Source: a virus. From it: 64,000 nucleotides of DNA. The notes under the pieces are model-generated. The model searched no databases and was not told where the DNA came from. It worked only from the letters and a program-made list of their open reading frames with translations. Numbering within the stretch: the first letter of the stretch is position 1; each line of letters begins with the position of its first letter. A program made the position numbers and the translations under genes. This document shows positions 24,952 to 63,064 of the stretch, piece after piece. Where the stretch lies: positions 87,360 to 151,359 of IMG/VR virus record IMGVR_UViG_3300020123_000589. One strand, 5' to 3'.

Positions 24952-25158
24952 ATGACTGAAATACCTTGTAAGTGTGGACATAGTAGAGAGTTACATCCAC
25001 AAAATGGAAAATTTCCGTTTATAGTTTGTGATGGGTGTTTTAAACGTAATCGTCCTAATGGTTTTCAACAAGTGAATTGTAAACAAGAATGTGTTAACTA
25101 TATTCCAGACAATCTTATGTTTATTGAACAACTTGCCAAGGTGCGAGGTTTAGTATGA
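24952..25158 (+). CDS. Zn-finger + DNL-tail family member 1
   Basis: CKCGHSRELH...CDGC...YIPDNLMFIEQLAKVRGLV; start moved to ATG 24952. Confidence 0.75.
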   Translation: MTEIPCKCGHSRELHPQNGKFPFIVCDGCFKRNRPNGFQQVNCKQECVNYIPDNLMFIEQLAKVRGLV

Positions 25159-25340
25159 TTTGTTGGAGATGTGGGCATTCAGCTAAGGAACATGCTGAAT
25201 TTTTACTACCAGGTAACAATGTTTATGGTTGCAAGGAATGCTGGCGTAGCCGTTCGAACAATAGTGAATTTTGTAAGCATGAATTTGAAGATAATTTAAC
25301 ATTTCTAGAACGCAAAGCGAAGGAACATAAACTGGCATGA
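25155..25340 (+). CDS. Zn-finger + DNL-tail family member 2
   Basis: CWRCGHSAKEH...CKEC...FEDNLTFLERKAKEHKLA. Confidence 0.75.
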   Translation: MICWRCGHSAKEHAEFLLPGNNVYGCKECWRSRSNNSEFCKHEFEDNLTFLERKAKEHKLA

Positions 25341-25522
25341 CATACCCTAAGTGCCTAACATGTGGGCATAAGAAAAGAAGTCATTTTAGTGGTACAACTA
25401 ATCTTAACGCAGACTGCGTTGAATGTATGCCAGGAGTAGTTGACGATTTTTGTATGTATAAGTATGTTCCAGATAACTTAGGACATATTGAGAAGTTGGC
25501 TAAAACTAAAGGATTAATATGA
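25337..25522 (+). CDS. Zn-finger + DNL-tail family member 3
   Basis: CLTCGHKKRSH...CVEC...YVPDNLGHIEKLAKTKGLI. Confidence 0.75.
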   Translation: MTYPKCLTCGHKKRSHFSGTTNLNADCVECMPGVVDDFCMYKYVPDNLGHIEKLAKTKGLI

Positions 25523-25531
25523 GCTTTTTAT

Positions 25532-25607
25532 GGAGGTATGGTGGAATGGCTAACACGCTTCCCTGTCACGGAAGAGATTACGGGTTCAATCCCCGTTACC
25601 TCCGCCA
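25532..25607 (+). tRNA. tRNA-Asp (GTC)
   Basis: Acceptor GGAGGTA/TACCTCC, anticodon arm CTTCC-ctGTCac-GGAAG, T-loop TTCAATC, G73, encoded CCA. Confidence 0.9.
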
Positions 25608-25626
25608 AAAGCTTGAAGTTTTTAAT

Positions 25627-25703
25627 CGGGCCTTCGTATAACGCTGTACACGGTGCGCTTAATCCAGATAACCGAAGTGTAGGTTCAATCCCTACAGGCC
25701 CGA
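25627..25703 (+). ncRNA. tRNA-like RNA with an aberrant 16-nt anticodon loop
   Basis: Acceptor CGGGCCT/AGGCCCG and T arm GTAGG-TTCAATC-CCTAC are perfect. The D loop lacks GG, the anticodon arm is CGGT-(16 nt)-ACCG, and there is no CCA. Confidence 0.6.
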
Positions 25704-25725
25704 TTAAAGATTTTGGAAGATGATA

Positions 25726-25798
25726 GCCCGAGTAGCTCAATTGGCAGAGCAATCCCTTTGTAAGGGAAAGGTTGTAGGTTCAACTCCTATCTTGGGCT
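25726..25798 (+). tRNA. tRNA-Thr (TGT)
   Basis: Acceptor GCCCGAG/CTTGGGC, D arm GCTC/GAGC, loop ttTGTaa, T arm GTAGG-TTCAACT-CCTAT; CCA not encoded. Confidence 0.85.
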
Positions 25799-25824
25799 GT
25801 GATCTTCTAAAGGAGATTATGTGA

Positions 25825-26088
25825 ATGTTTAAAAATTGTATAATGGTGGGATACCACCGTGTTAATAAACGCGGTGAGAGGATTTATGCAATTAAATTTC
25901 GATGGAGTAAATGGATCGAAACAAAGAACCCATTGAAAACCTTGAATCGGTGTGGGGACCTATTTTACTTTACCCCCGAGTATCTTGAGAAGAAAGGTTT
26001 GATTGATAATTTAGGTGTTATGGAGTTGCATTACTACAGACGAAAATATGGAAAGCTTAAGAAAGCTTGTATTTTGGAATTAAAATAA
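25825..26088 (+). CDS. Hypothetical basic protein
   Basis: AGGAG SD; ORF track. Confidence 0.5.
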   Translation: MFKNCIMVGYHRVNKRGERIYAIKFRWSKWIETKNPLKTLNRCGDLFYFTPEYLEKKGLIDNLGVMELHYYRRKYGKLKKACILELK

Positions 26089-26091
26089 TAG

Positions 26092-26262
26092 ATGAAAATT
26101 TGTAAACGATGTCAACACGATTTTGAAGAACACAATGATGATATGGCATGTAGTAATATAACATTTGGAAAGAAAAAAAGTAAACCTCACGATGGTTTAA
26201 TATTGGAAAGAAATTGCGGATATATTGATGTTGTCTGTCCATGCCCACATTTTTTGGCATAG
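26092..26262 (+). CDS. CxxCxH-x4-H zinc-finger protein without DNL tail (56 aa)
   Basis: MKICKRCQHDFEEH...C...CPCPHFLA; below the track cutoff. Confidence 0.6.
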   Translation: MKICKRCQHDFEEHNDDMACSNITFGKKKSKPHDGLILERNCGYIDVVCPCPHFLA

Positions 26263-26277
26263 ACATAGTGAATTAAA

Positions 26278-27735
26278 ATGATTTACCAAATTCTTATAAA
26301 TAATGTTTCTTCTCAAATAACTCCCGCCTTGGATCAGGCGGTCGTTAATGCTTTGCGTAATAAACTCTCATTTGAGATGCCAGGAATTTATTATATGAAG
26401 AAGATTAACCCTTATGCAGGTGTAAAATACTTTTTCACCCCAAAGACTCAAATTTTTCCTACTGGCTTAATCCATTACGTAAGGGATGTGTTGGATCTTT
26501 ACAAAGTCCCCTATGAACAGGTTGATATGCGTAAAGCTCCTGTTTTAGGCCCCGAAATCCCATTAAAAGGTGTCCAGCTTCGAGATTACCAAGAAGATGC
26601 CGTAAAACGAGCTGTAGAGCGTCAGCGGGGCATTATAAAGGCAGGTACGGGGGCTGGAAAGTCCATTACAGCAGCTAGTTTGATTGGAAAACTAAATGTC
26701 CCAACAATTTTATTCATCCACAAGACCGATGTTTTCTACCAGCTTATAAATACCCTTGAGGATACTCTTCAAGTCCCGATAGGTAAAATTGGTAATGGCC
26801 ATTGCGATATACAACGAATCAATGTTGGAATGATTCAGACAATCGCTCGTGCTTTTGATCCCACCCTTAAAGCGGAGGAGAAGGACAATGAGTTCTTGAA
26901 AGAGAAAGGCGATGTCATTAGAAAGGTTGTACAGGAAGCTGAATGTTTGGTGGCCGATGAGACACATCATTTAGCTTCGGATAGTTTTTGGACAGTTTAT
27001 AAAGCAGCAGAAAAAGCTTTTTATCGTTACGGATTTAGTGGTTCTCCTTGGCGGGATGACAATGCAACGATTATGATTGAGGGCGGAACGGCTAAACAAA
27101 TTATTGATATCCCAGCCAGTACTCTTATTGATCGAGGATATCTATCACCCGTAGATATTTACCTTTATGATTTTGAGCATGAGCGACAACCCAAGGGAAT
27201 TAAATATGCAACCCTCTATAATACTGAAATTATGCTTAAATTGGAGCGTAACAATTTTATAGTAAATTTAGCTTTAAAAGCTGCTAACTCAGGAAAGAGT
27301 GTTCTCATTGCGGTAACTAAAGTAGAACATGGAGAGTTGTTAGAAACCCTATTAAAAAAGCAAGATAAAAATGCTATATTTGTACATGGGGAATCTAATA
27401 ATGAATTACGCAGGAAAGTTTTAGATGGGTTAAGTAATCATACTCAAAAAATTGCGATTTGTACAACTATTTTCGGGGAAGGAGTTGATTCTCCTGGATT
27501 AGATGTTCTTATAAATGCTAAGGCAGGTGCATCTAGTGTTGATGCTTTTCAATTGGTAGGGCGTGTTCTTCGTAAAACGCAAGCTAAGAAAAAAGCTTAC
27601 GTTATTGATATAAGTGACTCTGGCTGTAGATTTTTTGGGCAACATTCATCTGAGAGATTAAAAATATATTCGACAGAGCCAAATTATAAACTTAAGTTTG
27701 TAAAAGACATTTCGCAAATTGTATTTGATGTGTAG
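26278..27735 (+). CDS. Superfamily 2 DNA helicase (UvsW/ResIII-like)
   Basis: LRDYQ, TGAGKS, DETH, SGSP.R.D, EGVD.P, Q..GR.LR. Confidence 0.9.
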   Translation: MIYQILINNVSSQITPALDQAVVNALRNKLSFEMPGIYYMKKINPYAGVKYFFTPKTQIFPTGLIHYVRDVLDLYKVPYEQVDMRKAPVLGPEIPLKGVQLRDYQEDAVKRAVERQRGIIKAGTGAGKSITAASLIGKLNVPTILFIHKTDVFYQLINTLEDTLQVPIGKIGNGHCDIQRINVGMIQTIARAFDPTLKAEEKDNEFLKEKGDVIRKVVQEAECLVADETHHLASDSFWTVYKAAEKAFYRYGFSGSPWRDDNATIMIEGGTAKQIIDIPASTLIDRGYLSPVDIYLYDFEHERQPKGIKYATLYNTEIMLKLERNNFIVNLALKAANSGKSVLIAVTKVEHGELLETLLKKQDKNAIFVHGESNNELRRKVLDGLSNHTQKIAICTTIFGEGVDSPGLDVLINAKAGASSVDAFQLVGRVLRKTQAKKKAYVIDISDSGCRFFGQHSSERLKIYSTEPNYKLKFVKDISQIVFDV

Positions 27736-27736
27736 T

Positions 27737-28375: not shown

Positions 28376-28412
28376 AATAAACTCCTAATTTTAGTTGTTT
28401 TATAGATATGAA

Positions 28413-28450
28413 TACTCTCTAATAACACCACATTTTATTACATTTTTAAA
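28413..28450 (-). promoter_or_regulatory. Conserved 38-bp element upstream of homing endonuclease (copy 2)
   Basis: Minus strand TTTAAAAATGTAATAAAATGTGGTGTTATTAGAGAGTA. Confidence 0.7.
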
Positions 28451-28459
28451 CATGATTTC

Positions 28460-28488
28460 TTGACAAGTTTATAAAAGTATGCTATACT
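28460..28488 (+). promoter_or_regulatory. Sigma70-type promoter
   Basis: TTGACA-17-(TGc)TATACT, GAGGTG SD follows. Confidence 0.8.
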
Positions 28489-28503
28489 ACGAAGAGGTGA
28501 ACT

Positions 28504-28701
28504 TTGAAGAGTAATAGAATTCCTTGCTTATGTGGACATATTGAATCAGTTCATATTAAACATGGAGGCATATTTAACGCACCAGATGTTATGTGTGCCG
28601 ATTGTTTTTATAAACCCGGACCTGGAGGACACTGGCATTATTTTAGTCCAGATAATTTATCTTATGTGGAAACTCTAGCAAAGGAGCGGAAATTGATATG
28701 A
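28504..28701 (+). CDS. Zn-finger + DNL-tail family member 4
   Basis: CLCGHIESVH...CADC...FSPDNLSYVETLAKERKLI. Confidence 0.75.
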   Translation: MKSNRIPCLCGHIESVHIKHGGIFNAPDVMCADCFYKPGPGGHWHYFSPDNLSYVETLAKERKLI

Positions 28702-29564: not shown

Positions 29565-29593
29565 TTGACAAAATACCCTTTTCCTGCTAAACT
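29565..29593 (+). promoter_or_regulatory. Sigma70-type promoter, leaderless to GTG 29600
   Basis: TTGACA-17-(TGc)TAAACT. Confidence 0.7.
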
Positions 29594-29599: not shown

Positions 29600-29776
29600 G
29601 TGGAAACAGAAGAAAAGCTCTGTGAATACTGCAAACACAAAGCAAGTGATCATCGTGTTGTTAATTCTGGTGCTTGTGGTGATCCCGAATGTTGTGGTAG
29701 CGAATATGAATGGTGTGAGGAATGCGGAGAATCTTGCAGCGGTTTTGATTTGAGAGAAAGGTGGTATGGAAGATGA
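29600..29776 (+). CDS. Cys-rich CxxCxH-x4-H zinc-finger protein without DNL tail (58 aa)
   Basis: METEEKLCEYCKHKASDH...C...CC...CEEC..SC.GF; GTG 6 nt after the -10 box; ATGA overlap with the next ORF. Confidence 0.6.
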   Translation: METEEKLCEYCKHKASDHRVVNSGACGDPECCGSEYEWCEECGESCSGFDLRERWYGR

Positions 29777-36191: not shown

Positions 36192-36809
36192 ATGAATATT
36201 ATACCCACTGTCGTAGAAAAAATGCAGGGTGCAGGTTCCATGGTGAGTTATGATCTTTTGTCTCGTTTGATGCAGGATAGGATTTTGTTTGTAGGTGGTA
36301 ATCATGGGGCTATCAGTTTAGATGACGCTAATATTCTAATCTCCCAGCTTTTGTATCTTGATTCAATAGATCCAGGTAAGAAAATTGAAATGTACATAAA
36401 TTCTCCTGGTGGAGAAGTATCGGCGGGCCTTGCTATTCTGGATACGATGAATCATATTCAGAGTCCGATTACAACCATTTGTTTGGGAATGGCGATGTCT
36501 TTTGGAGCAGTGCTGCTAAGTGCTGGAGAACCTGGAAAACGTTTTGCTCTTCCGAACGCTCGTATCATGATTCATCAACCCTTGATTTCTGGCGGTGGAA
36601 TTTCTGGCCAAGCCACAGATATTGAGATTGAAGCCAAAGAAATGACACATTGCAAAACCTCTCTTACAAAGATCCTAGCAGCAAATTGTAATCAGAAGTA
36701 TGAGAAAGTACTTAAGGATTGTGAACGCAATTTTTATATGTCGGCTGAAGAAGCAAAAGAGTATGGTTTGATTGACAAGGTTATTTTGCCTAAGAAGCTG
36801 GAAAAGTAA
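36192..36809 (+). CDS. clpP: ATP-dependent Clp protease proteolytic subunit
   Basis: YD..SRL..DRI, YINSPGG, G.AMS.GA, RIMIHQP; Asn at the catalytic Asp position (ERNF). Confidence 0.95.
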   Translation: MNIIPTVVEKMQGAGSMVSYDLLSRLMQDRILFVGGNHGAISLDDANILISQLLYLDSIDPGKKIEMYINSPGGEVSAGLAILDTMNHIQSPITTICLGMAMSFGAVLLSAGEPGKRFALPNARIMIHQPLISGGGISGQATDIEIEAKEMTHCKTSLTKILAANCNQKYEKVLKDCERNFYMSAEEAKEYGLIDKVILPKKLEK

Positions 36810-38343: not shown

Positions 38344-39510
38344 ATGAATTCACTTTATCTTTTAGCCATTCTTATTTTCTTTAATCAGGGTATTGGCGGA
38401 TTAGCTGCACAACCACTGTATTACTTTTTGCGTGAAACTTTGGGCATGGGTGTTCCAGCGATTATGGTCCTTGGAGCCCTTGCGAACCTTCCATGGTTGA
38501 TTAAGCCTGTCTGGGGATTTCTTAGTGATTCAATAAGTATCTTTGGGTACCGTAGAAAAAGTTATATTGTTTTATTTGCGCTTTTAGGCACCATAGCTTT
38601 TCTCGCTATCGGCTTGTCACCATTTATTTCTCTGTCTATTCTTATCGGCTTGATGATTGTTGGGTCCATTGGGGAAGCTGGTGGAAATGTAGCTGTAAAT
38701 GGCATGGGGATAGAAGAGGGTAATAAGGATGGAACTACAGGACGTTTTCAATCCATAACCTGGGCGGCTTTAGGTGTTGGTTCTGTCCTTACAGGCGTTT
38801 CTGGTGGTTATATTGCTGAAAAGGCTTCCTATCATCTCGCTTACGTAATTCTCGCTATTTTCCCTATCCTAATCGCTATAATGGCCCTCAGACATCCAGA
38901 AGAAAGGGCAGAAGGTTCTAAAAAGAACGTGGGGCCAATAATTAAGGATTTCCTATTAAAATTAAAAAATAAACAGATCCTTTTGTGTAGCCTTTTTGTA
39001 TTTTTCCTTTGGTTCAGTCCTTCTTTTGGAACTCCACTTTTGGACAGAATGCGAACGGTTTTACATATGTCCAAAGTGTGGATTGGATGGCTAGATACAA
39101 TTGGATCAGCTTGTGGAATTATCGGAGCTATGGTATACTTTAAAGTGAGCAAGAACATCAATATGAAGCGTTGGTTGTATTACGGAACCATCTTAAGTGC
39201 TTTGGCAACATTTGCTTATTTGTACCTAACGCCGACTACTTTGCTTTGGTATACGATTGTATTTGGAGTGGCAACACAGTTCATTCATTTGCTGATGCTT
39301 AACTTGATGGCGATGACTTGTCCAGAAGGAACTGAGGCAACTACGTATGCTTTGTTGTGTTCGTTGGTGAATTGTGCATCTTTCTTTTCGAATATCGTTG
39401 GAGCTAAGTGTTTCGCTTTGTTTGGATATAATGGGCTGATTATTATTTCAGGCGTTACTACCTTTATGTGTTTGGGATTTATTCCGTATCTTGAGGTAAA
39501 GAATGTTTGA
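38344..39510 (+). CDS. MFS transporter, folate-biopterin (BT1/FBT) family
   Basis: About 12 TM segments; 'LPW.IKP.WG.LSD...IFGYRRKSY' and 'CP.G.EAT.YALL.S..N' signatures. Confidence 0.85.
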   Translation: MNSLYLLAILIFFNQGIGGLAAQPLYYFLRETLGMGVPAIMVLGALANLPWLIKPVWGFLSDSISIFGYRRKSYIVLFALLGTIAFLAIGLSPFISLSILIGLMIVGSIGEAGGNVAVNGMGIEEGNKDGTTGRFQSITWAALGVGSVLTGVSGGYIAEKASYHLAYVILAIFPILIAIMALRHPEERAEGSKKNVGPIIKDFLLKLKNKQILLCSLFVFFLWFSPSFGTPLLDRMRTVLHMSKVWIGWLDTIGSACGIIGAMVYFKVSKNINMKRWLYYGTILSALATFAYLYLTPTTLLWYTIVFGVATQFIHLLMLNLMAMTCPEGTEATTYALLCSLVNCASFFSNIVGAKCFALFGYNGLIIISGVTTFMCLGFIPYLEVKNV

Positions 39511-39805
39511 AGTGGGAGATGTTATTGAATATGGTGGAGAAGGTTCTGAAGCATATATAGTTGATATTAATAGGAATAGTTTGTGTATATTATTTTTTGA
39601 TGGTTCAATAGGTTGGCACGATATTCAAGATAGTAATTTTAAACGGACTTCAAAAAATTGGGATTCCAATAAATTGAGAAATATTATCGAACTTGGTTTT
39701 TCCAAAGGATGTCGAGTAAAAAGGGCTGGTTATATCGATAATCTTACTTACATTGAGTTACTAGCCTGGACAAAAGAATATGCAGAACAAAGAACTCGAA
39801 TATAA
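39503..39805 (+). CDS. SH3/KOW-like hypothetical protein with a DNL motif near the C-terminus
   Basis: MFEVGDVI...; YIDNLTYIELLA. Confidence 0.55.
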   Translation: MFEVGDVIEYGGEGSEAYIVDINRNSLCILFFDGSIGWHDIQDSNFKRTSKNWDSNKLRNIIELGFSKGCRVKRAGYIDNLTYIELLAWTKEYAEQRTRI

Positions 39806-41171
39806 TTTCCTGAAGCATGTCCTTACCGATCCCAAATGTATCCTGAAAGTACAGGAACATGGAATTGATGAGAACTTCTTCAATATTCCCACAGTATCAA
39901 AACTCTTTGGTATTACCGTTCGTTATTACCAAGCTTACGGAGCCCTTCCCACTTCCGCTGATGTTGAGTTAGTCCTTTCCTCTAGCAAATATACTGCCAA
40001 TCTGGGTGATGATTTCAAAAAGCAAATAGCTGTCCTCTTCTCTGAAGTGTCAATTCTTTCCAATCCTCCCAACTTTGATTTGCTCCTTGATGAGTTGACC
40101 CAATACCACAAAACCAATTTATTCCAGCAATCTTTGTTTGCTGCCACTGAAGCTCTTACGAACAATAGCACAGATAAAGCGATTGAAGCCGTTAAGAAGT
40201 CGCTTGCGTCCATTGATAAGATTTTTGCTTCCAATTACGATTTGAATGGCAGTATTGAAACTAACGCCAAACCTTTGTGGGATCAGTTCCTGGATGCAGA
40301 ACAATATCCAGAAAAGTATAAGGGAATCAACGTGGGATTTGATGGGTTTGATAAATTAACAGGTGGATTGGTTGGAGGCACAGTTACCTTAATTATTGGA
40401 GGTTGGAAATCTGCTAAGAGTGTCCTTTCCATGAATATGGCACACAATGTTGCTACAAGCGATTTTGCTACTAAACGTGTTGGCAAAAGGGTTTTGTATC
40501 ACGTTAATGAGGGACGGTTTGAATTGAACCAAGCTCGTCTTGCATCTTGTGCAACAGGAATCAACTATACTCGTTTAAGCAGAGCACTCAGAGGGCGCGT
40601 TGTGTTTACCCAAGCTGAACGTGATCTTTATGAGAAGTATTTGAAAGGGGATGAATTCAAAGAGTTGCGACACAACCTCATTATCGATTCAGCACCTCCA
40701 ATTGTTTCCAGTGCTCGTTATATATCCGCAAAGATTAAAGAACACAATCCAGAGTTTGTCATCATCGATTATTTGGGGCTTTTGGGAACAGATCAGCGAG
40801 TGAAAGATGATAACGAGAAGCTTGGTAAGGTATCCTCTGAAGTGGTGTCGCTGGCCATTGAACACAACCTGCCTATTATCCTGATTGCACACGTTAACAG
40901 AAAAGCGAAACAAGCAGCCGATAAAAATAACGAGGATTATGACAGCGAAGATATGGGGCTGAGCATTGAACCAATTAAGAACGTGGATGCAGTTGTCTCC
41001 TGGAGAATTGAGGACCCCGAACAATTTAAACAAACACACAAGGGTATTGGAACATTGGCGATTAGGGATGCCAGGAACGTAGAGACGGGAACGTGTCAGT
41101 TGTTGGTAGATACCAACGTGATGGGAATAAAAAATATTATTTACGGTGGAATTGGTGGACAGCAACCGTGA
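39780..41171 (+). CDS. dnaB: Replicative DnaB-like helicase
   Basis: GI..GF..FD.LTGG...G, Walker A variant GGWKSAKS, NEG, IIDYL.L, H.NR, D.V, R..R. Confidence 0.8.
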   Translation: MQNKELEYNFLKHVLTDPKCILKVQEHGIDENFFNIPTVSKLFGITVRYYQAYGALPTSADVELVLSSSKYTANLGDDFKKQIAVLFSEVSILSNPPNFDLLLDELTQYHKTNLFQQSLFAATEALTNNSTDKAIEAVKKSLASIDKIFASNYDLNGSIETNAKPLWDQFLDAEQYPEKYKGINVGFDGFDKLTGGLVGGTVTLIIGGWKSAKSVLSMNMAHNVATSDFATKRVGKRVLYHVNEGRFELNQARLASCATGINYTRLSRALRGRVVFTQAERDLYEKYLKGDEFKELRHNLIIDSAPPIVSSARYISAKIKEHNPEFVIIDYLGLLGTDQRVKDDNEKLGKVSSEVVSLAIEHNLPIILIAHVNRKAKQAADKNNEDYDSEDMGLSIEPIKNVDAVVSWRIEDPEQFKQTHKGIGTLAIRDARNVETGTCQLLVDTNVMGIKNIIYGGIGGQQP

Positions 41172-41344
41172 AGGTGTACATAGATCAGTGTTGTTTCAAT
41201 TGTAAACATGAGGCAGGATGGCACCGAGATTGTGGTCGTAAGAACGGGCATTGTTTTAAATGTGCAGATTGTCAAGAATTTGTTCCTTCGGACAATCTGG
41301 ATTATATTGAAAAAAAAAAAAAAAAGAGAGGATTAGTAAAATGA
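41168..41344 (+). CDS. Zn-finger + DNL-tail family member 5 (poly-A within the tail)
   Basis: CFNCKHEAGWH...CFKC..C.EFVPSDNLDYIEKKKKKRGLVK; GTGA overlap with dnaB. Confidence 0.7.
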   Translation: MKVYIDQCCFNCKHEAGWHRDCGRKNGHCFKCADCQEFVPSDNLDYIEKKKKKRGLVK

Positions 41345-42147
41345 GCGTAAAACACCGTTATTCATGGCTCCCAGATTTACCTGATTTTAGAGATTTTAAG
41401 TATGCCTTTCACAGTCTAAAATTTTCTCCAAATATGGGATTGAATTTAAATTTGCCAACACAAGTTGATTTACGTCCCTTTTGTTCTCCTGTATTTGATC
41501 AGGGACAGTATGGTAGTTGTACCTCACAATCTCTTGCAGGGCATTTAGAATTTTTGGAGCTTAAAGAAATCCGAGAAAAAACTACTGCCCCAGAAGAGTT
41601 TGATCCTAATACTTTTGTACCATTCTCCCGCCTTTTCATTTATTGGAATGAACGCGATCTGGAAGGTACTACGAGTCAGGATAGTGGAGCACAGATTCGT
41701 GATGGTATTAAATCCTTGGCTCAATACGGAGATTGTAAAGAGGGGAATTGGAGCTACCTACCACAGAATGTATTTACCAAACCATCTGATGTAGCATTCC
41801 AAGAAGCTGCAAGTCATAAAATTTCTACTTATATGCGCTTGGATAGTCTTTACGACGTAAAGCACTGTCTATCAAGCGGCTACCCAGTTTCATTTGGTTT
41901 TACTGTATTCGAATCTTTTGAATCTCCTGAAGTGGCCAATACTGGGATTGTTCCAGTTCCACAATCTAATGAAGAATGTGAAGGCGGTCATGCCGTCTTA
42001 GCTGTTGGATATGACGATGCAAAGCAATGTTTGATCGTTAGGAATAGTTGGGGTCCGACTTGGGGCGATAAAGGATATTTCTACCTTCCCTATGAATTTG
42101 TCACCAATCAGGATCTCAGCGACGATTACTGGTCAATTCGTAAATGA
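41341..42147 (+). CDS. Papain-like cysteine peptidase (C1A)
   Basis: LP..VDLR, DQG..GSC, SRLFIY.N.R, GGHAV..VGY, RNSWG..WG..GY. Confidence 0.9.
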   Translation: MSVKHRYSWLPDLPDFRDFKYAFHSLKFSPNMGLNLNLPTQVDLRPFCSPVFDQGQYGSCTSQSLAGHLEFLELKEIREKTTAPEEFDPNTFVPFSRLFIYWNERDLEGTTSQDSGAQIRDGIKSLAQYGDCKEGNWSYLPQNVFTKPSDVAFQEAASHKISTYMRLDSLYDVKHCLSSGYPVSFGFTVFESFESPEVANTGIVPVPQSNEECEGGHAVLAVGYDDAKQCLIVRNSWGPTWGDKGYFYLPYEFVTNQDLSDDYWSIRK

Positions 42148-42344
42148 TTGAGTTTTGTATTTGTAGGCATTCTAAATTCGAACATAAAGAACCAACACCA
42201 TCTAGAAAAATACGATGCAGGGAATGTTGGAGTGAATGGGCTAATGGATGGAATGGAATTACAGAATCATCTTTAAGTCACGAATTCAAACTCGATAACT
42301 TGAAATTTATTGAAGATTTAGCTAAAGAGAGAAAACTGGTATGA
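42144..42344 (+). CDS. Zn-finger + DNL-tail family member 6
   Basis: CICRHSKFEH...CREC...FKLDNLKFIEDLAKERKLV. Confidence 0.75.
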   Translation: MIEFCICRHSKFEHKEPTPSRKIRCRECWSEWANGWNGITESSLSHEFKLDNLKFIEDLAKERKLV

Positions 42345-42871: not shown

Positions 42872-43075
42872 ATGAAAGATCTAAAATTACCATGTATTTG
42901 TGGGCATTTGAAAAGGGAACATAGATTAGGTTGTGCTGATTGTCATTATGATTTATTGGACAAAGATTACGGACCTACTAAATATTACCAAGAACGTCGA
43001 AAGATATTTCACGATTTCAAACTTGATAATCTTGCTTACGTCGAGCAAGTGGCTAGAGCACGGGGATTAGTGTGA
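42872..43075 (+). CDS. Zn-finger + DNL-tail family member 7
   Basis: CICGHLKREH...CADC...FKLDNLAYVEQVARARGLV. Confidence 0.75.
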   Translation: MKDLKLPCICGHLKREHRLGCADCHYDLLDKDYGPTKYYQERRKIFHDFKLDNLAYVEQVARARGLV

Positions 43076-45742: not shown

Positions 45743-45922
45743 ATGGAAGAAATTTGTATCTGTCATCATACAAGATCCAATCATGATGACGCAATTTGTT
45801 GGGCTTGTTATGATGGTCGGAATATGTACAAAAGAGGCGATTGGATACGGAGCAAGCACTCATTCAAACTCGACAATCTTAAGCTGATCGAGGACTTAGC
45901 TAAAGAGAGGAAATTGATATGA
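45743..45922 (+). CDS. Zn-finger + DNL-tail family member 8 (59 aa, not in the ORF track)
   Basis: MEEICICHHTRSNH...CWAC...HSFKLDNLKLIEDLAKERKLI. Confidence 0.75.
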   Translation: MEEICICHHTRSNHDDAICWACYDGRNMYKRGDWIRSKHSFKLDNLKLIEDLAKERKLI

Positions 45923-48520: not shown

Positions 48521-49906
48521 ATGTCACGACCTCGTGCTCTTTCAACATCTAATTCAGAATTTCCACTTCCCCCAAAATCTGCGTCATCTTTAACAGATAA
48601 AGATTGGGAAAGGGTTCTTAAGGAATCCAAATGGAATGGTAATTTCAATACGCATGTTTTTCAAACATTCCTTAATGCCAAAAGTCCAGATGAGATTCAA
48701 TATGATGAACATCAGGTAAGCGAATCATATAGCATCGTTCCTCGTTTTTGCCTTGAAGATTTTCTAAAAGAGGAGAAACTGAAAGTTGAGCGTTTAGCAT
48801 GGGTTTTAGAAGATTCTACATATAGCGTGGAATGGAGTTTGATCGAGATTGACGTAGATAAGAAAGTTAATAGGGTAAATAATGGGCAATTCTTTATCTC
48901 AAATGGGATTGACAAATACATTATTGAATCGAAGCAGGGATACCACGATAATTATTTCTTCAAGTTTATTAGTCGAAAGGACGCAAAAGTAAGCGGTAAA
49001 GATCTTCTAGAGAAGTTTCTTAAATATACAGAAGCACATAATTTCCTCCGAGGGAAGAAGATTGACCCTAATTGTTCTTTTGTACGTTTGGACCATAAAT
49101 ACACATGGGATGACATCATTCTTTCAGAGAAACTTAAAACAGACATTCGCCAAAACCTTTCGAACTTAATTGAGCATCGAAGCATCTACCGAGATAATGG
49201 ACTTAAGGTTCGACGTGGGCTAATCTTTTCAGGACCTCCAGGAGTAGGAAAGACTAATTTGGTTAAAATTCTCTGTGCCACAATTGATTGGACTTTAATT
49301 TGGGTTAGCCCAAAGCACTTAGAGAACCCTCGTAGAGTATCCATGATTATGCAGCTTGCAAAGGATCTAAGCCCGTCCATCATTGTTTTAGAAGATATCG
49401 ACCTTTATGGATCTTCTCGTGAAATGAATGGCAACCCTACCGTACTTGGTGAGCTAATGAATCAACTTGATGGAGTTGAAGGACTTGTTGATATTATCAC
49501 AATTGCTACAACTAATCGAGAAGAAGTATTAGAAAAAGCATTGCTTGATCGTCCTGGACGTTTTGACAAAGTTATTAAGTTTGGATTACCTGAAGTGGCA
49601 GAACGTTTGCGAATGTTGGAGTTGTTTTCTTCTACTGTTGGGAAAGACAAAAGCTTTACATGGGAAGAGCTTGCAGACAAACCAACGAAAGGTATGTCAG
49701 GCGCACAGATTCGTGAAGTTATTTCACAAGGAGTTATTCAGGCAGTGGATGATGGAAGTGTTGTTAAAGGAAAAATTGTATTAAAGTACAAACATTTGAA
49801 AGCAGCAATGGTAGCGATTAAGGGAAAAGATTTTACAAAGATTGGTATTCAACCCACAAGTAGCTCTCTTCCTGGAAGTTTGCTCGACGATATAGACCGC
49901 TGGTGA
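48521..49906 (+). CDS. AAA+ ATPase (classical clade, no protease domain)
   Basis: GPPGVGKT, LEDID, TTN, SRH 'ALLDRPGRFD'. Confidence 0.9.
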   Translation: MSRPRALSTSNSEFPLPPKSASSLTDKDWERVLKESKWNGNFNTHVFQTFLNAKSPDEIQYDEHQVSESYSIVPRFCLEDFLKEEKLKVERLAWVLEDSTYSVEWSLIEIDVDKKVNRVNNGQFFISNGIDKYIIESKQGYHDNYFFKFISRKDAKVSGKDLLEKFLKYTEAHNFLRGKKIDPNCSFVRLDHKYTWDDIILSEKLKTDIRQNLSNLIEHRSIYRDNGLKVRRGLIFSGPPGVGKTNLVKILCATIDWTLIWVSPKHLENPRRVSMIMQLAKDLSPSIIVLEDIDLYGSSREMNGNPTVLGELMNQLDGVEGLVDIITIATTNREEVLEKALLDRPGRFDKVIKFGLPEVAERLRMLELFSSTVGKDKSFTWEELADKPTKGMSGAQIREVISQGVIQAVDDGSVVKGKIVLKYKHLKAAMVAIKGKDFTKIGIQPTSSSLPGSLLDDIDRW

Positions 49907-53323: not shown

Positions 53324-53936
53324 TAATTTAAAAAATCTCTTTAACCAGAAACTTGGTAAGTTGGATGCCGTTACCAACTCTTTGAATATTTGCGAGAAGA
53401 GAATTAACGAGCTTACTTTGAACGAAGATACGGTTTCTAAATCCAGTTTGTTCCTTCAATCCTTGAGCGATACCGCACGTATCCAAGTAATAGAAAAGAT
53501 TAGTGGGCTCGTCACTGAAGTGTTACAAGCAGTGAAAGACAAGAATTTAACGTTTAAGATGGAACTTGGGAACGAGCGTGGCCAGCCGGATTTAAAATTC
53601 TTTGTTGTAGATAGTTTGACAGGTAAAGAGATGGACGTACTTGAAAGCTGTGGTGGAGGAATTGCCGATTTGGTTAGTTTCGCTTTGCGCGTGTCGCTTC
53701 TTTTAAAATGGCAACCAAGGCTTGAGCGTGTTTTGATTTGCGATGAAAACCTGAAATTCATAAGCGTAGCCGACCAAGAATTGGCAGGAGAATTTGTACG
53801 AAAGCTTTCTGAACAGTTGGGATTACAGATTATTTTTATTTCACATTCAAAAACACTGGCAGAGAAAGCGCACCGTACCTTTGAGGTAATGAAAGAAAAT
53901 GGAATCAGCAGAGTCCAAGAAACAGCTTCTCTTTAG
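53301..53936 (+). CDS. SbcC/Rad50-like ATPase, C-terminal half
   Basis: Signature-like SCGGG..D..SFALR, Walker B LICDE, H-loop FISH. Confidence 0.85.
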
Positions 53937-54303
53937 TATTACACGAAAAGACTTCCGTGTTGATACTTTTCGCTCAGGCGGAAAGGGAGGCCAGAACCAG
54001 AATAAGGTTGAATCTGGTGTTCGCATCACACATTTAGAATCTGGTGCCGTAGCAGAATCTAGAGAAGAACGAGATCAGATTCGAAATAAAGAAAGAGCTT
54101 TTCAAAAACTTATTAACACCTCAAAGTTTAAAGCTTGGCATAAAGTAAAGACTTCTTTTATGTTGCAAGGGATTCAAGATGGAGAAGTAGAGCTTGAACG
54201 TAGAGTTAACGAAGCAATGAAACTTGAGAATTTAAAAGTAGAAGGTAAAGACGAGAATGGACGTTGGAGTAAAGAAGCGGTTGAGGAAAATGAGCGAGAA
54301 TAG
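53899..54303 (+). CDS. Peptide chain release factor-like protein (GGQ domain only; ArfB/PrfH-like)
   Basis: F...[24 protein letters not shown].......R.Q..NK..A. Confidence 0.9.
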
Positions 54304-57939: not shown

Positions 57940-60484
57940 TACAAATTGTCAAAAATGTCCTGCTTTGTGTAAAAGTAGGAAACAGGTCGTAAATGGGCAA
58001 GGGCCAATAGAAAATGTAAAAATTATGATAGTTGGTGAAGCTCCTGGTCCAGACGAAAACGATTCTGGACAACCCTTTGTTGGAAGGGCGGGTCAGATGC
58101 TCACAAGGCTTTTGGGCATGGCTGGTATTGATCGTTCTCATGTTCGAATCTCTAATGCTGTACGTTGCTTTCCCAAGAACGAAGATAAAAGTATTATGTC
58201 ATCTTTCAGAGCCCCAACATTTGAAGAGATTACAGCTTGCCGAGAATATTTGAAGCAGGAGATTGAAGCGATTAAGCCCAACGTGATTGTTCCTGTTGGG
58301 AGTGCTGCGTTAAGTGCCATTTTAGGTTCAAAAGCCGCAGCAGCTTCTACAAAGATTACAAAAGTACGGGGCACAGAGTTTTGGTCCGAAGAATTAAACT
58401 GTAAAATTATGCCGACTTTCCATCCCAGTTTTGTAATGAGAGATCCCAACAAGGAACCCATCGTAATTCAAGATTTTGTTCGTATTCGAGAATCCTCACA
58501 ATACAAAGAACTTTCCAAAGGTGACGAGGGAAACTACATTACGCTGGATACAATGGAGAAAGTAGATGCTTTTTTTGAACGAATGAAAGATGTGCCAAAT
58601 TTTGTGTTCGACATTGAAACAAACTCCTTGGATTGGCAAGTGGGAGAAATACTTGAAATAGCTTTTAGTTGGAAAGCAAAAACAGCTTGTGTGCTTCCCC
58701 TTACAAAATACATCGGAATTCCTTACCAAGAACTTGAAATAAGAAAAAGAAAAAGTAAGAAAAAAGTAGATGGAAAGGTTCAAGTTATGGAAGTAGAAAA
58801 GCAGGTAGCTGTAGATAAGGTGCGGGATACGTATCAACCATATTGGGGTGATAAGCAGGAATATATTTTGGGCAAGCTTAAAGAACTCCTACAATCTGAA
58901 AAAGGAAAGATTGGACAGAACCTCAAATTTGATGTGAAATGGTTCATGCAGAAAGGCTGGCAAGTGAACAATGTTATTTTTGATACGATGTTAGCTGCTC
59001 ACTTGTTGAATGAGAATAACAAGGGTGGTTTGAACCTCACAGCCCTTTCGATGCAGTACACAACGATGGGTGCATATGACGGACAAATTGAAGCGTGGTT
59101 CAAAGAAAATAAAGTGTCAGAAGCGAAACGAAACTACGCTCACGTTCCTGACGAAATTCGTTTACATTACGCTTGTATGGACGCTGATGTAACGTGGAGA
59201 CTCTTTGAAAAATTTGTTCCCCTTCTAGCTAATGAAAATCTTACCGATATTTTTAACCGTTTAATTATTCCGTTAAGTGTCACATTAACCGAAGCCGAGT
59301 TCCGTGGGGTTAAGATTGATACGACTTATTTGAAAACACTTAAACAAGAACTTGAGACGGATATTGCCGCCCTTGAAAAAAGAATTAAAGATGTTACGGG
59401 GGAGATTAATTTAAATTCCCCAGATCAACTTAGAAAGCTTTTATTCAAAGATCTTAAGTTGCCAAAAATTAAAAAGACTAAGAAAGGTGAAGATTCGACA
59501 GATGTGGAAGTATTGGGAATTTTAGCGGATATGAATCCCATTCCGCAGTTGATCCTTGATTATCGTAAGTTGGAAAAGCTTTACACAACCTACGTTGTTG
59601 GTATTGAAGAAGTATTGGACAAAGATGGGTATTTGCATGGATCGTTTAATATTACAGGAACAGAAAGTGGGAGACTTTCCAGCAGTGATCCGAACCTTCA
59701 AAATATCCCAAAGAAAGACAAACGTATTAAAAAGATGTTTCGAGCTGAAGAAGAAAATGTAATGGTGGAAGGCGACTTGTCGATGGCTGAGATAAGGTTC
59801 TGGGCTGAGTTTTCCAGGGACCCTCAACTCCTTCAGGATCTTTATAATGGGTTGGATATGCACCGAGAAGTAGCAGCTAGGATATTTAAAATTCCACCTG
59901 AACAAGTAACCGACGAACAGAGGACGTTTGCAAAGAGAACTGCTTTCGGACTATTGTATGGAATGTCGAACGACAAGTTCAGTAAGCAGAATAAATGTAG
60001 CTTGGATGATGCAGAGAAAGGCCGACAAGCATTCTTTGGTCGTTATCCAATTGCCAAACAATGGCTGTTTCATATTTCTAGAGAAGCTAGAATGAATCAG
60101 TATGTTACAAACTTGTTTGGCCGTCGAAGACATTTGCCAGGAATTAACAGTCAAGACGAAATGGTTAAGTATGAAGCAGAAGCCGCCTCAAGGAATTCTC
60201 CAATTCAAGGAACTGCTTCAGATTACGCTTGTAATGCAGCTAATCGAATTGTTCAGAAATTTAAAGAGTTGGGATTGAAAGGTAAGCTTCGAATCCTTGT
60301 ACACGACGCTATCATTATGGATATTCCAAAAGTAGAATTTGAACAGTCGATTAATATTATGCGAGAAGAGATGCAGCGTCCCGTTTGTAATATGGTTGTG
60401 CCCATGGTTGCTGATTTTTCATACGGACCAAATTGGGGAGAAATGAAAAAGTACGAATTTAAAAAGGAGACAGCAAATATATGA
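57923..60484 (+). CDS. polA: Family A DNA polymerase with an N-terminal family-4 uracil-DNA glycosylase domain (SPO1-type architecture)
   Basis: UDG: C..C..L..SR, GEAPG..E...G.PFVG.AG, N.V.C.P, HPS. Exonuclease: DIET, N.KFD, Y...D. Polymerase: GRLSS..PNLQN, DLS..E.R, R..AK...FG..YG, VHD. Confidence 0.95.
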   Translation: MLNLNNTNCQKCPALCKSRKQVVNGQGPIENVKIMIVGEAPGPDENDSGQPFVGRAGQMLTRLLGMAGIDRSHVRISNAVRCFPKNEDKSIMSSFRAPTFEEITACREYLKQEIEAIKPNVIVPVGSAALSAILGSKAAAASTKITKVRGTEFWSEELNCKIMPTFHPSFVMRDPNKEPIVIQDFVRIRESSQYKELSKGDEGNYITLDTMEKVDAFFERMKDVPNFVFDIETNSLDWQVGEILEIAFSWKAKTACVLPLTKYIGIPYQELEIRKRKSKKKVDGKVQVMEVEKQVAVDKVRDTYQPYWGDKQEYILGKLKELLQSEKGKIGQNLKFDVKWFMQKGWQVNNVIFDTMLAAHLLNENNKGGLNLTALSMQYTTMGAYDGQIEAWFKENKVSEAKRNYAHVPDEIRLHYACMDADVTWRLFEKFVPLLANENLTDIFNRLIIPLSVTLTEAEFRGVKIDTTYLKTLKQELETDIAALEKRIKDVTGEINLNSPDQLRKLLFKDLKLPKIKKTKKGEDSTDVEVLGILADMNPIPQLILDYRKLEKLYTTYVVGIEEVLDKDGYLHGSFNITGTESGRLSSSDPNLQNIPKKDKRIKKMFRAEEENVMVEGDLSMAEIRFWAEFSRDPQLLQDLYNGLDMHREVAARIFKIPPEQVTDEQRTFAKRTAFGLLYGMSNDKFSKQNKCSLDDAEKGRQAFFGRYPIAKQWLFHISREARMNQYVTNLFGRRRHLPGINSQDEMVKYEAEAASRNSPIQGTASDYACNAANRIVQKFKELGLKGKLRILVHDAIIMDIPKVEFEQSINIMREEMQRPVCNMVVPMVADFSYGPNWGEMKKYEFKKETANI

Positions 60485-60807
60485 AAGCGTCTGATTACCA
60501 GTTATGGACGGAAAGAACGGCGATTTACCCAAAGAATGAAAGCATCATTTATACCACCATTGGCCTTGCCAATGAAGCAGGTGAGTGTTTGGGGGTAGTA
60601 AAGAAAATGATGCGGGATGATAATAACGTTCTGACAGAAGAAAAGCGTACAAAGCTGATCGCTGAAGTTGGCGATGTATGTTGGTATTTGGCGCGTGTAT
60701 GTACCGAACTCGGTGTTTCTATGGAAGATGTATTTGAAATGAATATGGAAAAACTTGAAGACCGCCTAAAGCGAAATGTGATTCAAGGATCTGGGGACAA
60801 TCGTTAA
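60481..60807 (+). CDS. MazG-like nucleotide pyrophosphohydrolase
   Basis: GL..EAGE....KK, E.GDV.WY.A, N..KL..R..R..I.G.GD.R. Confidence 0.9.
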   Translation: MKASDYQLWTERTAIYPKNESIIYTTIGLANEAGECLGVVKKMMRDDNNVLTEEKRTKLIAEVGDVCWYLARVCTELGVSMEDVFEMNMEKLEDRLKRNVIQGSGDNR

Positions 60808-60947
60808 TGCTTATTTGTGATAAATGCCACATAGCAAGTGCAGACGTTCAGAAAACAGTAGATCCTTATTCCAGCGATGTAAATAATGAAACGATTGAAA
60901 TAAACCTTTGTGATGCTTGTTATTGTGAGAGGGTTTGGGATATTTAA
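60807..60947 (+). CDS. Small C4 zinc-finger protein (46 aa)
   Basis: MLICDKC...DPY...NLCDACY...DI; TAATG overlap. Confidence 0.55.
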   Translation: MLICDKCHIASADVQKTVDPYSSDVNNETIEINLCDACYCERVWDI

Positions 60948-61487
60948 ATGTTTGATTGGCTCCATAAAATAAACGTAAGAGTGTATCTTTGCCAGGCAAT
61001 GACGGGCATTAGACAGAACGTCATATATCAAAGGAATGCGTATTGCACTCGCGTCTTAGAAAAGTACGGAATCGAGGTTTGGTCCCCCGTAACCGAAGAG
61101 GGTGTAAGCCCTTCCAATAGAAAACTTGATCAGCCTTCCCAAGAACAGCTTCGAAAATTTTGGCGCAGAGATAAGTTTTTGATAAAGCACAGTCACATTC
61201 TTTTGGACATAACAGGTCCTTCACGCTCACAAGGCAGTTTGCATGAAATTGGATTGGCGCGTTATTTTATTTTCCAACCTGTAGTGAGAGTCATGAAGCT
61301 TCGTGGACCTTCAGTAGTAATTGAACAAGAAGATATTGTAACAAGTACCGTAGAACAGGCTGCGAAACTAATAGTCCAGGAATTTGGGACACCTTGGAAA
61401 AGATTGAAATGGAAATTTAAATTGTTTGGACGATGCTTCCCTGGGTATTTGAAAACACGAATAATGTGGTGGATGGATTGGATTTAA
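60948..61487 (+). CDS. Nucleoside 2-deoxyribosyltransferase-like protein
   Basis: VYL...MTG, V.SP, RD...I..S, S.GS..EIG.A. Confidence 0.65.
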   Translation: MFDWLHKINVRVYLCQAMTGIRQNVIYQRNAYCTRVLEKYGIEVWSPVTEEGVSPSNRKLDQPSQEQLRKFWRRDKFLIKHSHILLDITGPSRSQGSLHEIGLARYFIFQPVVRVMKLRGPSVVIEQEDIVTSTVEQAAKLIVQEFGTPWKRLKWKFKLFGRCFPGYLKTRIMWWMDWI

Positions 61488-61633
61488 ATCCTAAATTTGC
61501 TCAGGGCGTAATTCAATTAGTTAAAGACGGAATTTTAACTAAAGGGTACGTTCAGGGATATTTAAAAAGCAGATTGGAAATGGGGAAAATAGATAACCTT
61601 TCGTATATTGAAATTATGGATGCAATAAAATGA
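61478..61633 (+). CDS. Small hypothetical protein with a DNL-like C-terminus
   Basis: ...KIDNLSYIEIMDAIK; ATGA overlap with the next gene; start uncertain. Confidence 0.45.
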   Translation: MDLNPKFAQGVIQLVKDGILTKGYVQGYLKSRLEMGKIDNLSYIEIMDAIK

Positions 61634-62334
61634 CAAACATTTTCAAACACGAACCAGGACAATTTAGAGGGTTCTTTTCAGAAACTTTGGACAGTTTTTT
61701 GAAATCCATTCAGGCTCCGTATACAAACACGAAAGTTATAAGGCCCTCTCAGATCCATTTATGTCAGCGTTGGATTGTTGGGGATCTTCTAGGCAGAATT
61801 CCATTTGAACCAAATAGTGCTGTGCAGCAACGAGTGTTGGATAATGGAAGCTATGTACACAAACGAATCCTTCAGAAGTATTTGCCAAGGATGGGGATTG
61901 TTCCGTACATCTTAGATATTAAGAAAGGTGAACTTAAACAGTTTATCGAGGTCAGCCTAAGAGACGATTCTTTATGGTTGAAGGGTAGCCCAGACGCTTT
62001 AATTTTAAATCCTAACGATGGGCTTGTTTACGTCTTTGAATTAAAAAGTATGCGGGATGGAGAATTTAAAATACTTGAAGATGCTAAGATTGAACACATC
62101 ATGCAAGTGCATCTCTACATGTGGCTCACAAACATTCCCAGAGCAATTTTATTTTATGAAAACAAGGATAGCCAGCAGACTAAAGAGTTTGTTATCCAAA
62201 AGAGCGATATTCTTATGAATAAAATTTTAAATAAAATTAGTTTGATACAGAAGGCCGCGACAGAAAGTAATTTAAATATTCCATGCGAAAATACTTCAGT
62301 AAATGCTTGTAAATGCAGCAAGATTCTGATATAG
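61630..62334 (+). CDS. Cas4-like / PD-(D/E)xK exonuclease
   Basis: PS....C.R, G..VH, G.PD, ELKS, Q...YM, C-terminal Cys. Confidence 0.8.
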   Translation: MTNIFKHEPGQFRGFFSETLDSFLKSIQAPYTNTKVIRPSQIHLCQRWIVGDLLGRIPFEPNSAVQQRVLDNGSYVHKRILQKYLPRMGIVPYILDIKKGELKQFIEVSLRDDSLWLKGSPDALILNPNDGLVYVFELKSMRDGEFKILEDAKIEHIMQVHLYMWLTNIPRAILFYENKDSQQTKEFVIQKSDILMNKILNKISLIQKAATESNLNIPCENTSVNACKCSKILI

Positions 62335-62335
62335 T
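62307..62335 (+). promoter_or_regulatory. Sigma70-type promoter, near-leaderless to ATG 62343
   Basis: TTGTAA-17-(TGa)TATAGT. Confidence 0.6.
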
Positions 62336-62442
62336 TGAACATATGAAGCTCTTCCATCAATCCCGTAAACTCGTATACGATACAGAGACGAAAGAAATCC
62401 AAACATTCGAAGAGTTTGAAAAGCAACAGGAGAAGAAAGAAA

Positions 62443-62874
62443 ATGAGTAAAAAGATTTCAAAAGTGTATCTCGATTGGTCACGTTATCTTAAGCTGATTG
62501 ATATTCTCGCAGAGAAGATTGATTGGAAGGATGAACAGTTCAAAAGTATTGTGTCGATTAATCGTGGTGGAAATATTATTGGAACAATTCTTTCCCACAA
62601 AACTGGAATCCCTTTAGTTGTGTTGAACAAAGCTGGAATTATTTATGAACGTGAGAAGTTTCTTGTCGTCGATGATATCGCTCACACAGGCTCTACTCTC
62701 GCCAATACCATTTATCTTTCCCAGGGAGCTAGGCTGGAATATCATCCTTTGGAATACGCTAACAAAGATTTCAAGATTGCAACGCTGCATTACAGGAAAG
62801 AATCAAAAGTGATGCCGGACTTCTTTGTTGAAACAGTTAACAAATGGATCGTCTATCCCTATGAATGTGCTTGA
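62443..62874 (+). CDS. Type I phosphoribosyltransferase (purine PRT-like)
   Basis: I.RGG, PRPP loop LVVDDIAHTGST, W.VYPYE. Confidence 0.85.
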   Translation: MSKKISKVYLDWSRYLKLIDILAEKIDWKDEQFKSIVSINRGGNIIGTILSHKTGIPLVVLNKAGIIYEREKFLVVDDIAHTGSTLANTIYLSQGARLEYHPLEYANKDFKIATLHYRKESKVMPDFFVETVNKWIVYPYECA

Positions 62875-63064
62875 TATTTTGTGTAAGTGTGGGCATTCTT
62901 TTTCACAACATCAAAGGGAACAGGATAGTAGCAGTTGCGTTTGTATTGTTCCTTCTATGGGAAAATCAAGTGATTGGGAACAATGGGCAGATAAGTGTAT
63001 GAAGTATGTTCCAGACAATCTCACCCACATTGAACAATTAGCAAAACAGAAAGGACTTGTATGA
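62861..63064 (+). CDS. Zn-finger + DNL-tail family member 9
   Basis: CKCGHSFSQH...CVC...C.KYVPDNLTHIEQLAKQKGLV. Confidence 0.75.
   Translation: MNVLDILCKCGHSFSQHQREQDSSSCVCIVPSMGKSSDWEQWADKCMKYVPDNLTHIEQLAKQKGLV

Follow-up and report, generated by a model that had tools for sequence, protein, structure and literature searches.

Numerous small proteins of an uncultured soil phage lineage combine variable heads with one conserved C-terminal DNL helix

The DNA examined here, called the window throughout, makes up the final 64 kb of a virus record of 151,359 bp (IMG/VR record IMGVR_UViG_3300020123_000589, positions 87,360 to 151,359; GC 37.5%) and is matched in rhizosphere and soil metagenome runs. 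About one in six of the open reading frames (ORFs) of the whole 151-kb record (41 of approximately 240, or around 17%) were found to bear the same tail core, D-N-L-x-x-[ILV]-E. Approximately 22 of the 41 tailed ORFs carry a putative zinc-binding head with the pattern C-x(1-2)-C-x-H-x4-H...CxxC, and the remainder carry at least ten unrelated heads. We propose that the lineage, an uncultured one of soil phages, uses these ORFs to encode accessory microproteins expressed early in infection, each made of a variable head and a constant C-terminal helix. The helix, with the core D-N-L-x-[YLFH]-[IV]-E and in this sub-lineage the continuation x-L-A-K-x-[RK]-[GNK]-L-[IV]-stop, is an autonomous module. 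It would dock every tailed protein on the same partner, which may be a hub of the host or a conserved protein of the phage, and the heads would supply differing specificities. A docking helix for one shared partner is in our judgement the most likely mechanism, though we put it forward tentatively; both the docking and the existence of a single partner are what we infer from the patterns described below.

A first-pass annotation of the window had reported nine small ORFs with an N-terminal Cys/His pattern and a common C-terminus. All nine were recovered, on the + strand:

24952..25158, +: putative zinc head and DNL tail microprotein, 68 aa counted from the ATG at 24952, opening a triplet; its stop overlaps the next start (ATGA)
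25155..25340, +: putative zinc head and DNL tail microprotein, 61 aa, tail variant ending KLA; placed by alignment and profile
25337..25522, +: putative zinc head and DNL tail microprotein, 61 aa, last of the triplet, ahead of tRNA-Asp and tRNA-Thr
28504..28701, +: putative zinc head and DNL tail microprotein, 65 aa; begins with TTG and is the first gene behind a promoter; overlaps the start of a metallophosphoesterase gene
41168..41344, +: putative zinc head and DNL tail microprotein, 58 aa, GTG start overlapping the dnaB stop; coupled between dnaB and a papain-like peptidase gene
42144..42344, +: putative zinc head and DNL tail microprotein, 66 aa, the modelled member; coupled between the peptidase and primase zinc ribbon genes
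42872..43075, +: putative zinc head and DNL tail microprotein, 67 aa; follows the primase zinc ribbon gene, in a slot that is empty in distant syntenic relatives
45743..45922, +: putative zinc head and DNL tail microprotein, 59 aa, upstream of a UvsX-like recombinase gene
62861..63064, +: putative zinc head and DNL tail microprotein, 67 aa, after a phosphoribosyltransferase (PRTase) gene; start backed by orthologues opening MN.LDILC

Alignment bore out the Cys/His pattern claimed for these ORFs, C-x(1-2)-C-x-H-x4-H followed by CxxC or CxC, in nine out of nine, and likewise their shared tail, DNLxx[ILV]ExxAKxxxL[IVA], which ends at the stop or one residue short of it. The invariant columns of the alignment are two His, two Cys, the D, N, L and E of the tail and its penultimate L. 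A family of nine was an undercount, as three more ORFs in the window carry the core motif and the genome holds 41. A profile built from the nine ORFs retrieved 13 further full-length members outside the window, with E-values from 7e-21 to 1e-9, as well as tail-only partial matches on other proteins. When the 151-kb genome was scanned in six frames with [DN]NLxx[LIVM]E, 40 matches were obtained, exclusively on the + strand, compared with 0-2 in 20 shuffles; together with one P-N-L variant these make up the total of 41. Except for one internal copy, the matches lie 13-37 residues from the stop, with exactly 16 residues for most.

The tail is the most conserved part of the protein among 161 cluster representatives. 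Its N and E are invariant and its L, A and penultimate L are kept in at least 99%, while information is low mainly at positions 3 and 7 and intermediate at position 11. Spaced four apart, these three positions would form a single exposed stripe of the helix. This would leave most of its surface constrained, D, E, K and R included, which is more than a 45-residue head should require for packing. In 161 of 171 representatives the protein ends exactly 16 residues after the D, with [RK]-x-L-[IV]-COOH, an arrangement that we refer to as class A. DNL always has a hydrophobic residue ahead of it (F/Y at -3, L/P at -1), and the last zinc ligands lie 3-6 residues upstream of the helix.

At the nucleotide level the tails have diverged extensively. 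The comparison of 42286-42344 with 45863-45922, from which the first-pass annotation had argued for selection on the peptide, was reproduced: 14 of the 16 residues are identical, and 9 of the 14 codons for these residues differ. Over the 253 tail pairs in this genome the synonymous sites are saturated (pS = 0.87, pN = 0.30, mean nucleotide identity 58%). Codons at conserved tail positions match genome-wide usage, the invariant Leu being spelled by five different codons. Selection on the tail is thus at the peptide level, since its synonymous sites are saturated, and the same saturation rules out a DNA-level element such as a promoter or a recombination site as the role of the tail.

The extreme C-terminus is partly under a second kind of constraint. 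Class A genes end in TGA in 19 of 23 cases, compared with 47 of 217 other ORFs (Fisher p = 9e-9), and 18 of the 23 show a 4-nt stop/start overlap (ATGA), compared with 44 of the 217 (Fisher p = 4e-8). The final Ile is encoded by ATA in 10 of 11 tails and the tail Gly by GGA in 8 of 12, giving a Shine-Dalgarno-like AGAGGA where Arg precedes. The use of ATA for the final Ile and of TGA as the stop can be explained by the next gene starting within the ATGA overlap, and the genome's Shine-Dalgarno signal lies at -12 to -8, where the [RK]-G codons of the tail fall. Because the Shine-Dalgarno sequence and start of the next gene overlap them, the last four or five residues of the tail are partly dual-coded; the D-N-L-x-x-I-E-x-L-A core is not. 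Start signals of a following gene that overlap a C-terminal tail can thereby inflate the tail's apparent conservation.

We then compared the heads with their tails removed. Fourteen zinc heads cluster by BLAST, and a head-only profile adds most of the other zinc-pattern heads, raising the total to 21 members. The remaining tailed ORFs fall into many unrelated groups or BLAST singletons, with at least ten head types overall. Specifically, these include a second Cys-containing type (DWxCKxC), SH3-type-barrel-like starts with a longer helix (DNLxYIExLxxLKxY), proteins with no Cys/His pattern that end in DNLDIIEExAxKKGL, and a protein of 178 aa whose end is basic. For several non-zinc tailed proteins, related phages encode orthologues with 55-82% identity, so that these proteins can be regarded as products of real genes. 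Non-zinc ORFs and possible tail-less heads in the window are as follows:

39503..39805, +: class B, non-zinc head with an SH3-type-barrel-like start, DNL core and longer helix (DNLTYIELLAW..); no Pfam or PHROG match
25825..26088, +: non-zinc ORF whose DNL core is degenerate (IDNLGVMEL) and whose end is basic; a distant relative has an orthologue at L125:14866-15123
61433..61633, +: non-zinc ORF ending IDNLSYIEIMDAIK
26092..26262, +: possible tail-less zinc head, marginal (CxxCxHx4H ... CPCPHF, then stop); second-best non-member match of the head-only hidden Markov model (HMM), E = 0.16
29600..29776, +: possible tail-less zinc head, marginal, just after a consensus promoter (29565-29593); head-only HMM E = 0.011

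In a distant relative, too, L124:21062-21286 encodes the head scaffold with a polar tail behind it and lacks the DNL helix.

The zinc head itself spans approximately 45 residues with eight Cys/His positions (CxC/CxxC, H, H, CxxC, then CxC or xH), and the loops between these positions vary freely in length and sequence. Eight such positions would suffice for two zinc ions, zinc binding being predicted here from the ligand pattern. An AlphaFold model of 42144-42341 (144 sequences) reached a pLDDT of 86.8, with helices at residues 26-33 and 52-62. Modelling of the head without the tail (residues 1-50, 55 sequences) gave the same secondary structure with a pLDDT of 81, compared with 87 in the presence of the tail. 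Among the outcomes that would undo its modular view, the first-pass annotation had named that the helix is just a structural part of the zinc fold; with a head that can be modelled without the helix and a naturally helix-less head this was not the outcome, and some added packing of the helix on the head is compatible with both observations.

Searches of Pfam and PHROGs returned nothing significant for the nine proteins, the only Pfam hint being Prok-RING_4 for one member at E = 0.06, below the cut-off. Neither the full protein nor the tail alone matched any PDB sequence. Fold searches with the full and tail-less models against the PDB, BFVD and the ESM Atlas gave nothing at a Foldseek E <= 0.001 and nothing at Z > 2.6; the best row of the wide structural search had Z 2.6 (rmsd 3.7 A over 51 aligned residues), and 11 of its 26 rows were RING or U-box domains. 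A protein-atlas feature search returned unnamed clusters exclusively, no fused or longer family form above 152 aa was found at E <= 10 (weak evidence), and no description of the family was found in the literature. Overall, the statement that no described family has this architecture was upheld, with no relative in Pfam, PHROGs, the PDB, BFVD or GenBank phages. Judged by these searches, the predicted zinc head is an undescribed mini-domain family, which merits its own entry in protein-family databases.

Several known domains resemble the family in part. The zf-DNL domain (PF05180; Zim17/Tim15/Hep1, an Hsp70 escort) has two CxxC knuckles followed by H-x3-D-N-L. It shares with the present family a small zinc domain (predicted here), a D-N-L a few residues past the last ligand and a His shortly before it. 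Nonetheless, PF05180 (gathering score 27 bits) gave no match at E <= 1 with the nine proteins and none at E <= 10 in the six frames of the genome. Here the pattern is CxCxHx4H...CxxC rather than two CxxC knuckles, the His lies five residues before the D, and the DNL opens a helix that also occurs without a zinc domain. The Tim15 structure was absent from the rows at Z >= 2 of the wide fold search, an absence that is not excluding. RING and U-box domains likewise have a central helix that follows a CxxC, and their Cys/His positions also number eight, but here a single residue lies between ligand pairs 1 and 2 (C-x-C-x-H-x4-H) as opposed to 9-39, and the RING cross-brace, C-x2-C-x(9-39)-C-x(1-3)-H-x(2-3)-C-x2-C-x(4-48)-C-x2-C, does not fit the family. 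An HNH or His-Me finger, suggested by the DNL after Cys/His knuckles and by a few weak HNH rows, was rejected on the basis of a His-Asn gap of only about five residues, the lack of a Pfam match and the presence of the motif without any zinc head. A beta-clamp-binding motif (QLxLF-like, as N-L-x-[YLF]-[IVL]) was also considered; it is a weak idea, with Asn instead of Gln and a helical context, and no clamp gene was found in the record.

A profile search of 1.84 billion metagenome cluster representatives returned 931 at E <= 0.001 and 101 at E <= 1e-10, and the 150 representatives listed are 56-103 residues long. Three related records, two of them from IMG/VR, gave 29, 31 and 36 profile matches (31 and 36 in the IMG/VR pair), and a 99-kb Logan contig carries approximately 18 tailed ORFs within 20 kb. 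No tblastn match was found in 50,697 GenBank phage records, and no match to the strict tail pattern in 185,579 prokaryote species genomes. With a looser tail pattern, a single prokaryote contig was found, from a Candidatus Bathyarchaeota bin (CAVYHL010000002.1, L127; 83 kb, GC 35.5%), with four DNL-tailed ORFs in 2 kb; this contig is probably a mis-binned relative of the phage. Most matches in a pattern scan of viral contigs belong to an unrelated, very abundant protein of approximately 370-420 aa with an internal ADNLxxIExLAKNQ (at L007, L008, L013, L016 and about 55 other IMG/VR loci), and this is a chance match to the tail pattern, multiplied by abundance. Distant phages share the gene order dnaB, primase, UvsX-like, exonuclease, AAA+, SbcCD, family A polymerase and MazG, with no tailed genes at the corresponding places.

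The closest published precedent is found in Bacillus phage G, for which a lineage-specific expansion of zinc ribbons to around 35 copies has been described and for which a role as transcription factors or structural DNA-binding proteins has been proposed (Iyer et al. 2021, PMC7824862). In both cases a single large phage genome encodes small zinc-type proteins as tens of paralogues. The family profile nevertheless finds nothing in the phage G genome (NC_023719) at E <= 1, despite its 29-36 matches per related record, and the consulted parts of PMC7824862 make no mention of a terminal helix shared by unrelated heads. Large phages are known to expand small zinc protein families; here the expansion has a testable handle, the 16-residue helix.

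Expression signals in the record bear on when the tailed genes would be used. A promoter consensus with an extended -10 box, TTGACAA-N13-TGCTAnACT, occurs in 11 copies, all on the + strand, at window positions 7141, 28460, 29565, 32621 and 35878 and genome positions 4565, 7120, 8003, 9323, 17891 and 19097. It stands directly before the tailed genes at window 28504 and at genome 7182, 17926 and 19134, some of which are nearly leaderless. The copy ahead of the tailed gene at window 28504 is:

28460..28488, +: near-consensus sigma-70-type promoter (TTGACA-17-TATACT with TG), 15 nt before gene 28504

For several promoter copies the start codon lies only 5-8 nt past the -10 box, suggesting early transcripts with little or no leader. 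No RNA data set was listed among those that contain this DNA, so the timing is read from the promoters. Other tailed genes share 4 nt with the genes for dnaB, the papain-like peptidase and the primase zinc ribbon. Based on these promoters, the coupling to replication genes and the slots that are empty of tailed genes in distant phages, the tailed genes look like early or middle accessory insertions between core genes. Of the neighbours named by the first-pass annotation, dnaB, the papain-like peptidase, the primase zinc ribbon, the PRTase and two tRNAs were confirmed, and the supposed single-stranded DNA-binding protein (SSB) had no family match. The papain-family (C1) peptidase gene (window 41341-42147) is flanked by two tailed genes; distant relatives have a pyrophosphatase gene and an AAA_28 gene at that place.

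Two proteins encoded in the window had been put forward as partners of the tail:

36192..36809, +: ClpP homologue, an earlier candidate partner; no link found
48521..49906, +: Cdc48/VCP-type AAA+ ATPase, an earlier candidate partner; no link found

Nothing was found that links either of them to the tail. Co-folding of the AAA+ ATPase with a tailed microprotein gave a score of 0.00, which is below the mark and uninformative either way, and co-occurrence with candidate partners is likewise uninformative because all the related genomes are close kin. The ClpP homologue at 36192-36809 is near cellular ClpP (232 bits) and lies among non-structural genes. A second ClpP-like gene, at genome 32285-32809 (L120; 99 bits), adjoins the structural block and is probably the head protease; a related record has both genes as well. 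The AAA+ protein is a single-domain Cdc48/VCP/Afg2-type ATPase with a 190-residue N-domain without known family. Its gene lies between Mre11-like exonuclease and SbcC-like genes, and occurs with the same neighbours and approximately 48% identity in phage contigs of 97-193 kb. Of the proposal that the tail is a modular docking helix, the separate module is supported by the peptide-level selection, the unrelated heads and the head modelled alone, and the assignments to ClpP, to the AAA+ ATPase and to a degron are not supported.

A docking helix is favoured because the tail is constant across paralogues, its polar residues are conserved and its low-information sites appear to lie on one face. Several observations weigh against it. 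The tail helix has a pLDDT of at least 90 in the monomer model, this model aligns weakly over its full length with compact RING/U-box domains (Z 2.6), and the helix may simply pack on the head. The zinc head is almost always tailed in this genome (21 clear members as against two marginal tail-less matches), no partner of the tail was identified, and the records rich in tailed genes are all close kin. Moreover, the tail end differs between sub-lineages: a sister lineage has ..DNLK[YF]LE[KR]EY[ED]SR[EK] (EYESRE, EYDSRK) and keeps the core DNLx[YF]LE, so a single universal partner would have to co-vary or to bind the DNL core alone. Some of these points would be accommodated by an inherited structural capping helix that completes small domains, has no shared partner and is kept by descent through duplication and head replacement, a reading we consider somewhat unlikely. 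Such a helix would fit the confident, compact monomer model, the weak full-length likeness to U-box and RING domains, in which the C-terminal helix belongs to the fold, the hydrophobic residue always preceding DNL and the zinc ligands ending 3-6 residues ahead. However, the same helix occurs on at least ten heads without detectable similarity, and packing on such different cores leaves the invariant polar residues and the near-all-round conservation unexplained; the head is also confidently modelled alone, and exists naturally without the helix. Self-association of the tails into dimers or a mixed complex, to which we give quite a low probability, could draw on an amphipathic helix with an invariant Asn and Ala and on weak structural neighbours that include RING domains dimerising via flanking helices, but the helix has only about three turns. 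Near-identity over 40 paralogues would moreover force promiscuous heteromers, whereas self-association helices in paralogues would be expected to diverge against cross-talk.

The remaining readings concern the C-terminal end or the gene junction. The end could mark the proteins for turnover or serve as a protease-adaptor handle, recognised by ClpX/ClpA/Lon of the host or by the Cdc48-like AAA+ protein of the phage together with the phage ClpP, either limiting the lifetime of early proteins or delivering head-bound targets for degradation. The fixed class A end and the presence of a true ClpP homologue away from the head module, together with a Cdc48/VCP-type unfoldase, would suit such a handle, and the class A end, basic-x-L-[IV]-COOH at a fixed distance, resembles ClpX degrons of the ssrA LAA and MuA RRKKAI (C-motif-2) types. 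We judge it distinctly unlikely. The MuA-like basic-hydrophobic end that the first-pass annotation had likened to a ClpX degron proved to be confined to one sub-lineage: in syntenic relatives with both the AAA+ gene and the DNL core the terminal residues are charged, which argues against a C-terminal degron as the conserved function. In class B and the other tailed classes the protein runs 13-37 residues past the core to unrelated ends. The conserved core is helical and lies upstream of the end, the next gene's start and Shine-Dalgarno sequence partly dictate the last two codons and the R-G pair, and the AAA+ gene sits in a recombination module. A role in translation, in which the nascent peptide, the built-in ribosome-binding site and the ATGA junction pass ribosomes to the next gene, would account for the class A preference for TGA and the 4-nt overlap, the ATA and GGA codon bias, the insertion of the genes between core genes and the stop spacing fixed at 16 residues. 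It is nevertheless very improbable, as the best-conserved D, N, L, I, E and A lie 7-16 codons upstream, where synonymous sites are free, the stop spacing varies in other tailed classes, and the conserved zinc ligands imply that the proteins themselves matter. A capsid-targeting or ejection tag, like the T4 internal-protein targeting sequence, would also be one terminal peptide common to many small proteins. We regard it as scarcely credible: the genes lie behind early, host-type promoters and in replication operons, not in the late structural block.

Returning to docking on one shared partner, its most far-reaching form would be an adaptor library, in which approximately forty early proteins redirect one hub (a protease/unfoldase, RNA polymerase or a chaperone) to many host targets. 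This specific version is in our view unlikely; if true, it would be a bacterial-virus counterpart of the F-box or PRANC receptor families. As a working analogy, F-box, SOCS-box and poxvirus PRANC proteins also combine varied target-binding parts with one constant small helical plug, and a constant element on unrelated domains occurs here. There is, however, no sequence or fold relation, the present system is bacterial-viral, and nothing in it points to degradation. If the helix docks on one partner, the hub manipulated by this phage lineage would be identifiable through the tail, and the heads would constitute a natural library of small zinc-stabilised binders.

A few further features of the record were observed. 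The record is incomplete: the same phage goes on with an IMPDH/GMP-reductase-like gene, a Toprim primase, a NusG-like protein and a sigma-70 region-4-like protein, and a 175,549-bp contig of the same phage is present in a protein database. As the DNA beyond the window end looks phage-like, the 'provirus' label of the record may be a trimming artefact. The window also encodes a BT1/MFS folate-biopterin-type transporter (38344-39510), which is kept in a distant relative (L124:1-484) beside PRTase/NAPRTase genes. Lastly, window 53899-54303 and its neighbours encode a 134-aa RF-1-domain protein (of the ArfB/ICT1-like peptidyl-tRNA hydrolase type), cREC_REC and PQ-loop proteins, these calls having been made on a contig with the same genes. 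Relatives also have PTH2, and together with the RF-1-domain protein this hints at ribosome-rescue functions.

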